Source: Escherichia coli | GTDB lineage: Bacteria; Pseudomonadota; Gammaproteobacteria; Enterobacterales; Enterobacteriaceae | DNA length: 28,938 nt | Strand: one strand, 5' to 3' | Assembly: GCF_003334315.1 (NCBI RefSeq) | Contig: NZ_QOWR01000059.1 | In this document: positions 1-28,938 of the stretch, one piece after another | Position numbering within the stretch: position 1 is the stretch's first letter | How the letters are laid out: each line of letters begins with the position of its first letter | Program-made: the position numbers and the translations under genes | Notes under the pieces: generated by a model | Seen by the model: the letters and a program-made list of their open reading frames with translations, nothing else | Told to the model about the DNA's origin: nothing | Databases searched by the model: none

Positions 1-204
1 GGTTGAGAAGCGGTGTAAGTGAACTGCAGTTGCCATGTTTTACGGCAGTGAGAGCAGAGATAGCGCTGATGTCCGGCGGTGCTTTTGCCGTTACGCACCA
101 CCCCGTCAGTAGCTGAACAGGAGGGACAGCTGATAGAAACAGAAGCCACTGGAGCACCTCAAAAACACCATCATACACTAAATCAGTAAGTTGGCAGCAT
201 CACC
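1..204 (-). mobile_element. insA: IS1 insertion sequence, terminal portion (inverted repeat plus 5' part of insA); continues beyond window start
   Basis: Reverse complement of 1..204 reads GGTGATGCTGCCAACTTACTGATTTAGTGTATGATGGTG...GTGGCTTCTGTTTCTATCAGCTGTCCCTCCTGTTCAGCTACTGACGGGGTGGTGCGTAACGGCAAAAGCACC..., which I recognise as the IS1 terminal inverted repeat followed by the insA start (GTG at 149 on minus strand; translation [24 protein letters not shown]...). Recognition from memory, no search run. Confidence 0.85.
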
Positions 205-275
205 CGGCAGCATAACTACCCGTAGCGGCGAATAGTGCGGCAGCCAGCGCAGACGAAATAAATCTTAATTTCATA
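205..275 (-). pseudogene. sfmA: 5' remnant of a fimbrial major-subunit gene (sfmA-like signal peptide), interrupted by IS1 after about codon 23
   Basis: Minus strand from 275 reads ATG AAA TTA AGA TTT ATT TCG TCT GCG CTG GCT GCC GCA CTA TTC GCC GCT ACG GGT AGT TAT GCT GCC G (MKLRFISSALAAALFAATGSYAA), a typical fimbrial signal peptide, then runs straight into the IS1 terminus GGTGATG; the frame hits TGA immediately. Position next to folD matches the K-12 folD/sfmA arrangement. Confidence 0.55.
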
Positions 276-744
276 TATATTCCTTCAATCTCATTTATCG
301 ACTCCACATCCGTATATAACCGATTACTTTATTTAAGACACTGATAGTAGTAAATTCCTTTTTATCCTCTAAGAATGTCTTAATTGAAAATATGCACTCT
401 ATTCTAAAAAATAGAGAGCCCCGTTAGATGAATACTTCCGCGCATAATATATTCAACACAAATATAGACCTGAAGCGGTAAATTACCAGGCTGAAAATTC
501 TTTTTATATTGTCAGGTATTTCTTAAATTATCTTAATCCTTAGACAAGGAAATAAATCAGTTCCAGATTTACAACGCCATCATGGACGAAAAATGAAGCT
601 TTCAGTCTCAGCGACGGTGCGCCTCACCTTCGCAAGAGGTCGCTTCACGCGATAAATCTGAAACGAAACCTGACAGCGCGCCCCGCTTCTGACAAAATAG
701 GCGCATCCCCTTCGACCTACGTAACAGATGGAATCCTCTCTCTG

Positions 745-1611
745 ATGGCAGCAAAGATTATTGACGGTAAAACGATTGCGCAGCAGGTGCGCTCTGAAGT
801 TGCTCAAAAAGTTCAGGCGCGTATTGCAGCCGGACTGCGGGCACCAGGACTGGCCGTTGTGCTGGTGGGTAGTAACCCTGCATCGCAAATTTATGTCGCA
901 AGCAAACGCAAGGCTTGTGAAGAAGTCGGGTTCGTCTCCCGCTCTTATGACCTCCCGGAAACCACCAGCGAAGCGGAGCTGCTGGAGCTTATCGATACGC
1001 TGAATGCCGACAACACCATCGATGGCATTCTGGTTCAACTGCCGTTACCGGCGGGTATTGATAACGTCAAAGTGCTGGAACGTATTCATCCGGACAAAGA
1101 CGTGGACGGTTTCCATCCTTACAACGTCGGTCGTCTGTGCCAGCGCGCGCCGCGTCTGCGTCCCTGCACCCCGCGCGGTATCGTCACGCTGCTTGAGCGT
1201 TACAACATTGATACCTTCGGCCTCAACGCCGTGGTGATTGGCGCATCGAATATCGTTGGCCGCCCGATGAGCATGGAACTGCTGCTGGCAGGTTGCACCA
1301 CTACAGTGACTCACCGCTTCACTAAAAATCTGCGTCATCACGTAGAAAATGCCGATCTATTGATCGTTGCCGTTGGCAAGCCAGGCTTTATTCCCGGTGA
1401 CTGGATCAAAGAAGGCGCAATTGTGATTGATGTCGGCATCAACCGTCTGGAAAATGGCAAAGTTGTGGGCGACGTCGTGTTTGAAGACGCGGCTAAACGC
1501 GCCTCATACATTACGCCTGTTCCCGGCGGCGTTGGCCCGATGACGGTTGCCACGCTGATTGAAAACACGCTACAGGCGTGCGTTGAATATCATGATCCAC
1601 AGGATGAGTAA
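745..1611 (+). CDS. folD: Bifunctional methylenetetrahydrofolate dehydrogenase / methenyl-THF cyclohydrolase
   Basis: 288-aa [26 protein letters not shown]...; length and sequence match my memory of E. coli FolD; TAA stop at 1609..1611. Confidence 0.96.
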
Positions 1612-1612
1612 C

Positions 1613-1825
1613 ATGGCGACATTTTCTTTAGGTAAACATCCGCACGTTGAGCTGTGCGACTTGCTGAAACTGGAAGGCTGGAGCGAAAGCGGCGCGCAGG
1701 CGAAAATCGCGATTGCCGAAGGCCAGGTGAAAGTCGACGGTGCGGTTGAAACGCGCAAACGCTGCAAAATCGTCGCCGGTCAGACAGTGAGTTTTGCAGG
1801 TCACAGCGTACAGGTTGTTGCCTGA
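1613..1825 (+). CDS. ybcJ: Small S4-like RNA-binding protein YbcJ
   Basis: ATG at 1613 two nt after folD stop; 70-aa product MATFSLGKHPHVELCDLLKLEGW... The ORF track's longer 88-aa version starts upstream inside folD and is less likely. Confidence 0.8.
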   Translation: MATFSLGKHPHVELCDLLKLEGWSESGAQAKIAIAEGQVKVDGAVETRKRCKIVAGQTVSFAGHSVQVVA

Positions 1826-1833
1826 TCCCTTTC

Positions 1834-1865
1834 CCGGCCTGTATCAACAGGCCGGTTCTCTTTTC
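1834..1865 (+). terminator. Rho-independent terminator after folD-ybcJ
   Basis: Stem CCGGCCTG (1834..1841), loop TATCAA, stem CAGGCCGG (1848..1855), followed by TTCTCTTTTC. Confidence 0.6.
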
Positions 1866-27191: not shown

Positions 27192-27259
27192 AAATCAAGT
27201 TTCCTTGCGCGTTGGCGCGTAAAATAGCGCGCAAGCTGATTTGAGGTTCACTTTTAACT

Positions 27260-28354
27260 ATGCAAGAGAGACACACGGAACAGGACTATCGTGCCCTGCT
27301 GATTGCTGATACGCCCATTATTGATGTTCGCGCCCCTATCGAGTTTGAGCACGGCGCAATGCCCGCCGCTATCAATCTGCCGTTAATGAATAACGATGAA
27401 CGCGCCGCCGTTGGCACCTGCTATAAACAGCAAGGCTCAGACGCAGCGCTGGCGCTGGGACATAAACTGGTGGCGGGTGAAATTCGTCAGCAGCGCATGG
27501 ACGCCTGGCGGGCAGCGTGCCTGCAAAATCCGCAAGGTATTCTCTGCTGCGCCCGTGGCGGTCAACGTTCACATATTGTGCAACGCTGGTTGCATGAAGT
27601 GGGGATTAATTATCCGCTGGTGGAAGGCGGTTATAAGGTACTGCGCCAGACTGCGATTCAGGCGACCATTGAACTGTCACAAAAACCGATAGTGCTGATT
27701 GGCGGTTGTACCGGCTGCGGCAAAACGCTGTTAGTGCAGCAACAGCCGAACGGTGTTGATCTGGAAGGGTTGGCGCGTCATCGCGGTTCGGCGTTTGGTC
27801 GCACGTTACAACCACAACTTAGCCAGGCGAGTTTTGAAAACCTGCTGGCTGCCGAAATGCTAAAAACCGACGCCCGTCAGAATTTGCGCCTGTGGGTGCT
27901 GGAAGACGAAAGCCGGATGATCGGTTCGAATCACCTGCCGGAATGCCTGCGCGAGCGAATGACTCAGGCGGCGATTGCGGTGGTAGAAGATCCGTTTGAG
28001 ATCCGTCTTGAGCGCCTGAACGAAGAGTATTTCTTGCGTATGCATCATGATTTTACCCACGCGTACGGCGACGAACAGGGCTGGCAGGAGTATTGCGAAT
28101 ACCTGCATCACGGACTTTCGGCGATTAAGCGTCGGCTGGGGCTACAGCGCTATAACGAACTGGCTGCAAGGCTGGATGCAGCACTGACAACGCAACTCAC
28201 CACCGGCAGCACCGACGGTCATCTGGCCTGGCTGGTGCCGTTACTTGAAGAATATTACGACCCGATGTATCGCTATCAGCTTGAGAAAAAAGCGGAAAAA
28301 GTTGTCTTTCGCGGTGAGTGGGCGGAAGTGGCGGAATGGGTTAAGGCGCGGTAA
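27260..28354 (+). CDS. selU: tRNA 2-selenouridine synthase (rhodanese domain plus P-loop)
   Basis: 364-aa [44 protein letters not shown]... with rhodanese active-site Cys (CARGGQRS) and Walker A (GGCTGCGKT). Confidence 0.92.
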
Positions 28355-28410
28355 TGAGGGACGTATTTGTATTAGTCGCGACTTGATCTGACACATGGCC
28401 TTGAAAGGTT

Positions 28411-28470
28411 GAGAGTTACCGGTTTTGATATGAGTGTCGAATCCTTATCCAAAACAAGAGGTAACTCTCA
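28411..28470 (+). other. Long inverted repeat / stem-loop spanning the RBS and start codon of the downstream HTH ORF
   Basis: GAGAGTTACCGGTTTTG (28411..28427) pairs with CAAAACAAGAGGTAACTCTC (28451..28470); the 3' arm contains AAGAGG and ends one nt before ATG 28471. Confidence 0.5.
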
Positions 28471-28841
28471 TGCTTCATACTGCCAATCCCGTCATCAAAC
28501 ACAAAGCCGGTTTGCTCAATCTGGCTGAAGAACTCAGCAACGTATCAAAAGCCTGTAAAATCATGGGCGTTTCGCGTGATACGTTTTATCGTTACCGCGA
28601 ACTGGTCGCTGAAGGCGGTGTGGATGCGCAGATTAATCGTAGTCGCCGCGCTCCTAACCTTAAGAACCGTACCGATGAGGCAACTGAACAGGCTGTTGTT
28701 GATTACGCCGTCGCTTTCCCGACACATGGTCAGCACCGGGCCAGCAACGAGCTGCGTAAACAGGGGGTTTTTATCTCCGACAGTGGTGTCCGTTCTGTCT
28801 GGTTACTCCATAACCTTGAGAATCTCAAAAGACGATACTGA
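28471..28841 (+). pseudogene. ylbG: Transposase-like helix-turn-helix protein fragment (ylbG-like IS remnant)
   Basis: MLHTANPVIKHKAGLLNLAEELSNVSKACKIMGVSRDTFYRYRELVAEGGVDAQ... resembles the N-terminal HTH of IS-family transposases with no catalytic domain following; start taken at ATG 28471 behind AAGAGG rather than the ORF-track start 28434. The position matches where I recall the K-12 pseudogene ylbG. Confidence 0.5.
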
Positions 28842-28861
28842 ACAAATTTTATCAGGTGACG

Positions 28862-28938
28862 TGATCTTACCCAGCAATAGTGGACACGCGGCTAAGTGAG
28901 TAAACTCTCAGTCAGAGGTGACTCACATGACAAAAACA
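28862..28938 (+). mobile_element. insE: IS3 left end (IRL and start of orfA), continues beyond window end
   Basis: TGATCTTACCCAGCAATAGTGGACACGCGGCTAAGTGAGTAAACTCTCAGTCAGAGGTGACTCACATGACAAAAACA matches my memory of the IS3 left terminus and the OrfA start (ATG 28927, MTKT...). Confidence 0.85.

Follow-up and report, generated by a model that had tools for sequence, protein, structure and literature searches.

The window analyzed here is a 28,938-nucleotide (nt) stretch of the Escherichia coli contig NZ_QOWR01000059.1 that has part of an insertion sequence (IS) at each edge, IS1 on the left and IS3 on the right. Between them lies a piece of the E. coli chromosome that runs from the start of sfmA through folD, cysS, lpxH, purEK, and the allantoin/glyoxylate cluster to selU and ylbG, in the orientation opposite to that of the K-12 map. 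The original prediction, made from the letters of this stretch, was that the two elements bracket a 28.6-kb allantoin/pur segment and expose it to IS-mediated deletion, inversion, or amplification. Our comparisons with other E. coli genomes point to a different reading: the window is a contig-like piece of chromosome that ends inside a repeated IS on each side, the two elements are separate, and the interval between them is intact (probability of about 0.85).

The interval is collinear with that of other E. coli genomes. Window positions 205 to 28862 aligned with E. coli K-12 MG1655 (NC_000913.3, approximately 529,624 to 558,281) in a single ungapped block containing 229 mismatches, so that the IS1-to-IS3 interval of 28,658 bp is gapless relative to K-12. 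E. coli PI12 aligned with positions 205 to 28938 with 10 mismatches, again without gaps. Gene-by-gene translation gave the K-12 length for every gene in the window but two, allW and fdrA; cysS, lpxH, and folD were intact by the same comparison. In 5,105 of the 5,426 complete E. coli genomes searched, at least 80% of window positions 205 to 25000 lay at a single location. A Shigella origin of the window was considered and rejected, since PI12 differs by just 10 bases in 28.7 kb and has the same IS3 insertion. The features discussed below are collected in Table 1.

Table 1. Features of the 28,938-nt window (coordinates are window positions)
Feature	Coordinates	Strand	Description
IS1 left (IRL) end, IS1A type	1..204	-	Terminal inverted repeat and first 49 insA codons, transcribed leftwards out of the window; cut by the window edge
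sfmA remnant	205..274	-	Codons 1-24 (first 70 nt); same sequence as K-12 sfmA nt 1-70
Interval between IS1 and IS3	205..28861		Gene order folD-ybcJ-ybcI-cysS-ppiB-lpxH-purEK-ybcF-ylbFE-fdrA-allDCE-glxK-ybbY-allB-allW-glxR-hyi-gcl-allRA-allS-selU-ylbG; structurally intact
fdrA codon 79 CAG>TAG (Q79*)	11570..11572 (change at 11572)	-	Private to the clone; same split gene in a Logan contig of SRR10357290
allW codon 364 TGG>TGA (W364*)	19762..19764 (change at 19762)	-	Private to the clone
ylbG	28470..28841	+	Helix-turn-helix gene, no differences from K-12; RefSeq: incomplete transposase-like pseudogene
ACG target triplet duplicated by IS3	28859..28861		From the comparison with PI12; second copy beyond the window
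IS3 left end	28862..28938	+	77 nt: terminal repeat and orfA start (MTKT) at 28927, transcribed rightwards out of the window; cut by the window edge

The window starts, as had been proposed, with the left end of an IS1. Window positions 1 to 204 were 100% identical to the 204 nt nearest the left inverted repeat (IRL) of an annotated IS1A of PI12. The IS1 terminal inverted repeat GGTGATGCTGCCAACTTACTGAT is present as its reverse complement, ending ...AGTAAGTTGGCAGCATCACC at position 204. The insA start lies about 55 nt into IS1 from its left end, and positions 149 to 1 on the minus strand encode the InsA N terminus (49 residues). Within these 204 nt, IS1A and IS1B differ only at window position 197. 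The junction of IS1 with sfmA lies at 204/205, and homology to K-12 begins at position 205, which is nt 70 of sfmA (codon 24). A probe spanning this junction gave no single-piece match among the 5,426 complete E. coli genomes. It was covered in 32 genome records, always as two pieces, with at least 11 different spacings between IS1 and sfmA. These results show that the IS1 junction is clone specific and that IS1 has repeatedly targeted the 5′ part of sfmA. A hot spot for IS1 covers the first ~150 nt of the gene (in the region of 8920-9040 of the LCP22S3_I2 stretch compared): in a single clade, IS1 is joined by its left end to nt 32, 70, ~90-102, 136, and ~140-147, and other lineages have at least 8 further IS1 positions in the sfmA 5′ region, in the same orientation.

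At the right edge, IS3 begins at T28862 (TGATCTTACCCAGC...), and positions 28862 to 28938 matched IS3 at 100%; homology to K-12 ends at 28862. PI12, which has the same left junction, holds a complete 1,258-bp IS3 flanked by a 3-bp duplication (ACG-IS3-ACG), of which the window itself holds 77 nt. The PI12 sequence reads GTGACG-IS3-ACGTTCCG, compared with GTGACGTTCCG and a single ACG in K-12. This duplication fixes the IS3 boundary at 28862, and the start given for the element in the original prediction was therefore exact to the base. The insertion site is 21 nt after the ylbG stop codon. A 152-nt probe across the ylbG-IS3 junction was covered to at least 80% in 58 complete-genome records, including at least 3 that carry an independent insertion 27 bp away; 22 of the 25 matches listed were a single piece at 100%. 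The opposite junction, IS3 to ylbI, was intact as one piece in 43 records. Since the left end is found in 58 records and the right junction in 43, IS3 is an old, inherited simple insertion within an E. coli clade, with synteny usually kept on both sides.

The exceptions that we examined at the IS3 site affected only the outer side of the element. In AH65, DNA is deleted between the end of IS3 and the inside of an Rhs fragment. In BL12, the 3′ end of IS3 is truncated by IS5, and DNA is lost up to rhsD. In PSS-16, IS3 has inserted independently, in the same orientation and 27 bp farther along, and 2018-02-2CC was assigned the same independent insertion on the basis of its matching 27-bp offset. 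The short spacer after ylbG (the region of 28842-28861) has thus received two independent IS3 hits, 27 bp apart and in the same orientation. Beyond ylbG in the relatives, ylbI, ybbD, and Rhs fragments make up a patch of remnant genes in which IS insertions are tolerated.

IS1 and IS3 are members of different families; therefore, they cannot recombine or transpose together, and the pair is not a composite transposon. A composite transposon has the same IS on both sides and one common target duplication at its outer ends. The window has IS1 on one side and, on the other, an IS3 with its own duplication. The arrangement resembles Tn9 (IS1 flanked) and Tn10 in having one insertion sequence at each end of a segment. 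It differs from both in that the two ends belong to different families and the IS3 is solitary, with its own 3-bp duplication. It differs further in that the segment is ancestral core chromosome in K-12 gene order, with reportedly essential genes. An IS-flanked dispensable segment would consist of dispensable genes throughout, and this interval contains cysS, lpxH, and folD, which are reportedly essential in the Keio collection; an open-literature source for their essentiality was looked for, and none was found. If that essentiality holds, block deletion of the interval should be lethal. We propose that IS1 and IS3 have separate histories and no joint action, that the interval stays structurally untouched because of its reportedly essential genes, and that its allantoin genes are decaying independently by point mutation.

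Both ends of the window lie inside IS copies, which is not the result of a random cut, and the position of the ends is probably best explained by where the window or its contig was cut. Logan k=31 contigs from three independent runs (SRR10357290, ERR271230, and SRR3824135) were 100% identical to the window, and the two Logan contigs that reach the right end both stop 28 nt into the same IS3. The k=31 contigs of this clone also break at palindromes of the repetitive extragenic palindromic (REP) type, at ~7105 and ~15320. The IS3 part of the window is 77 nt long, which equals a common assembler k-mer size. With 24 to 40 or more matches to IS1 on the chromosomes of close relatives, a stretch of ~29 kb without an IS is typical. 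The window resembles short-read contigs that break at repeats in that both of its ends stop shortly inside a multicopy IS.

Two points weigh against this account of separate elements at contig-like ends. The 204 nt of IS1 do not simply fit the same k and are longer than a single common k-mer overlap, which sets the window apart from the usual short-read contig break and leaves its contig origin as something that we infer. In addition, the 58 records of the IS3 clade were inspected individually only in part. A k-mer overlap as the source of the 204-nt length was tried as an explanation and was not established. Separately, palindromes of the REP or bacterial interspersed mosaic element (BIME) type are found in the purK-ybcF (6960-7153) and allE-glxK (15226-15452) spacers. 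An Rfam scan of the window gave two matches only, both to known small-RNA or REP-like families and both in the allE-glxK spacer: STnc480 (15232-15298, minus strand) and ES036 (15324-15366, minus strand).

To account for the IS1 junction, we turned to the closest complete genomes (LCP22S3_I2, NT1F31, and others), which showed 7 to 9 mismatches in the 24.8 kb compared. LCP22S3_I2 and NT1F31 carry a simple IS1A insertion in sfmD, 768 bp long, with a 9-bp duplication, CCGTGAGCG, and in the same orientation as the window IS1. This copy lies 1,912 bp left of the window IS1 junction (6321-7088 in the LCP22S3_I2 stretch compared). Of its junctions with sfmD, the IRL junction is retained in 34 records and that of the right inverted repeat (IRR) in 20.

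Several relatives have rearrangements at this resident copy. In Z1323PEC0011, the sfmD-IRR junction is kept and the IRL is joined to nt 32 of sfmA, a 1,950-bp adjacent deletion that ends 38 bp from the window junction. In ST12468, the 1.9-kb segment from the 5′ part of sfmD to sfmA is inverted between two inverted IS1 copies, the second of which is at sfmA nt ~90-102; this state is the inversion outcome of intramolecular replicative transposition. PI12 and VTB97420v have lost DNA on both sides of IS1, without a target duplication. Overall, the sfmD IS1A resident in the clade is the source of nested adjacent deletions to its left and right and of a 1.9-kb inversion that comes with a second, inverted copy of IS1. 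We also considered the junction of IS1 with fimZ in PI12 as a common ancestral state. This was rejected, as only PI12 and one other record have it and the resident copy is in sfmD.

Given that the closest relatives carry a same-orientation IS1A in sfmD and that derived states show its rearrangements, the window IS1 junction most likely arose as an adjacent deletion from the sfmD copy, at slightly better than even odds. In this mechanism, the resident IS1A would attack a nearby target, and the resulting adjacent deletion of ~1,912 bp would take the 5′ part of sfmD, sfmC, and most of sfmA. Classic IS1-promoted deletions in the gal region were reportedly described by Reif and Saedler in 1975 and by Turlan and Chandler in 1995. 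The relatives resemble IS1-promoted adjacent deletions and inversions in that one IS end stays fixed and the other is joined to a nearby new target without a target duplication. The window differs in that it displays the new IRL junction only, so its membership in this class is drawn from the relatives. In a long-term evolution experiment, adjacent deletions that grew stepwise were found beside resident IS copies (PMC11708052).

A fresh, simple transposition of IS1 into codon 24 of sfmA, flanked by a 9-bp target duplication and followed by the remainder of sfmA and the sfm operon, would also produce the junction and is a serious competitor, with a chance that falls only somewhat short of even. 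The IRL side of IS1, which is the side present in the window, is compatible with an adjacent deletion, a simple insertion with a 9-bp duplication, or an insertion followed by IS1-by-IS1 recombination. Second, independent IS1 insertions nearby also count against a deletion from the sfmD copy and for a new insertion: PSS-16 has a clean IS1 insertion in sfmA with both halves of the gene present, and additional IS1 copies lie between sfmA and folD in 2018-01-1CC, EC6, and PSS-13. That IS1 has repeatedly hit both the beginning of sfmA and the folD upstream spacer, at the 11 or more distances noted above in 32 records, favors this origin too, as does the A+T content of the IS1 flank, which is higher than that of the whole window (60% versus 48%). 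Against it, a same-orientation IS1 is already resident 1.9 kb away in the closest relatives, and several relatives derived from the sfmD IS1 rearrange from that resident copy without a second insertion inside sfmA itself.

The two origins differ in the sequence that they predict at the other end of the element (the slash marks the junction). If the adjacent deletion is true, the IRR flank would read ...GTAACCGTGAGCG/GGTAATGACTCC, in sfmD. If the simple insertion is true, it would read ...CCATCTACAACGGCAGCAT/GGTAATGACTCC, with sfmA from nt 62 and the 9-bp duplication CGGCAGCAT; this sfmA-side flank with its duplication may also be written ...CATCTACAACGGCAGCAT/GGTAATGACTCC.

The allantoin region of the window carries two nonsense mutations, in allW and fdrA, and the original prediction was right that these are real. 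Relative to PI12, LCP22S3_I2, NT1F31, and K-12, the clone has seven private derived single-nucleotide polymorphisms (SNPs), all within 9525-21322: two nonsense, three missense, one synonymous, and one intergenic. The protein is altered by five of the six SNPs in coding sequence, and six of the seven SNPs are G:C>A:T. The truncated AllW and FdrA products were found in Logan/ENA assemblies only (SRR10357290, ERR271230, SRR3824135, and others), with no NCBI protein accession; the identical truncated AllW product was present in just five Logan contigs. No proteins specific to this clone are encoded in window positions 205 to 9524.

The clustering and the spectrum of these SNPs are suggestive but statistically not firm. 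They could be taken to mean that the private allantoin mutations, including the two stops, came from a mutagen or from import by recombination and not from ordinary relaxed selection. We consider this very unlikely: little clustering is left after purifying selection on the housekeeping part is taken into account (range test, ~0.02 to 0.08), and seven SNPs are too few for a firm spectrum. A mutagen or Dcm-deamination signature was itself rejected, as the sequence contexts give it no support. No site lies in a Dcm (CCWGG) context, and a 5′ purine precedes just three of the six G:C>A:T changes, so there is no alkylation signature.

Relatives in the clade have independent lesions in the same cluster. 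Strain cM2a has an IS1 in allW and a stop codon in ylbE. IS1 is inserted in hyi in 2018-01-1CC and, at a different site, in ET245; it is inserted in allE in 14EC001 and in the 3′ end of allD in EC6. HCP30S3_I2 has a frameshift in allB. These lesions correspond to window positions 12000 to 23000, and there were no such lesions from folD to purK. The comparison covers this cluster alone. The expectation of a decaying allantoin locus was therefore correct, and the decay extends across the clade; it proceeds through point mutations and through IS1 copies newly inserted inside the cluster, and not through loss of the interval between flanking IS copies.

A broader view of these data is that the strains belong to an IS1-expanded commensal or livestock clade in early reductive evolution, in which the sfmD IS1 series of deletions and inversions erodes the cryptic sfm fimbrial operon toward folD and loss of the allantoin genes, by stops in the window and by IS1 hits and a frameshift in relatives, is convergent and favored, beyond being tolerated. 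We regard this as unlikely. There is a likeness to the IS expansion and pseudogene formation of Shigella and other niche-restricted E. coli lineages, in that an IS1-rich lineage has a cryptic fimbrial operon and an anaerobic nitrogen-scavenging pathway being eroded by IS hits and stop codons. There is also a difference from such Shigella-like decay, as the relatives are ordinary commensal or livestock E. coli in which decay is mild and varies among strains.

Least probable of all, and by our estimate highly improbable, is the original reading, in which IS1 and IS3 together would put the 28.6-kb allantoin/pur segment at risk of deletion, inversion, or amplification through IS activity. In its favor, each of the two elements is active within the clade, the allantoin genes can be dispensed with and are in decay, and PI12 has a further IS1B just beyond IS3, so that IS1 copies can flank the interval in some genomes. 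Against it, IS1 and IS3 share no homology or transposase, the reportedly essential cysS, lpxH, and folD lie inside, there are no gaps relative to K-12, the interval was deleted or inverted in none of the clade genomes inspected, and all rearrangements seen fell in the sfm operon or on the Rhs side. The IS1B of PI12 (39299-40066 of the PI12 stretch compared) is inverted relative to the sfm-side IS1; the interval there lies between inverted IS1 copies yet is collinear. The proposal of IS-mediated rearrangement holds insofar as IS1 and IS3 do rearrange at these sites in relatives, with deletions and an inversion on the IS1 side and outer-side deletions at IS3, so that the two copies are not simply fixed and quiet. 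It does not hold for the interval, which is untouched and collinear; the rearrangements examined lie outside it or in the sfm operon, left of the window IS1 junction.

The mechanisms involved are all textbook ones, and the finding is an ordinary one, of little importance beyond correct annotation. It carries a caution: a contig that ends in IS elements on both sides does so as a by-product of assembly, and such ends are not evidence of a mobile or unstable unit. The locus illustrates in nature, on a small scale, the remodeling of dispensable DNA by IS elements beside essential genes, with the sfmA hot spot, the nested deletions, and the repeated allantoin lesions.

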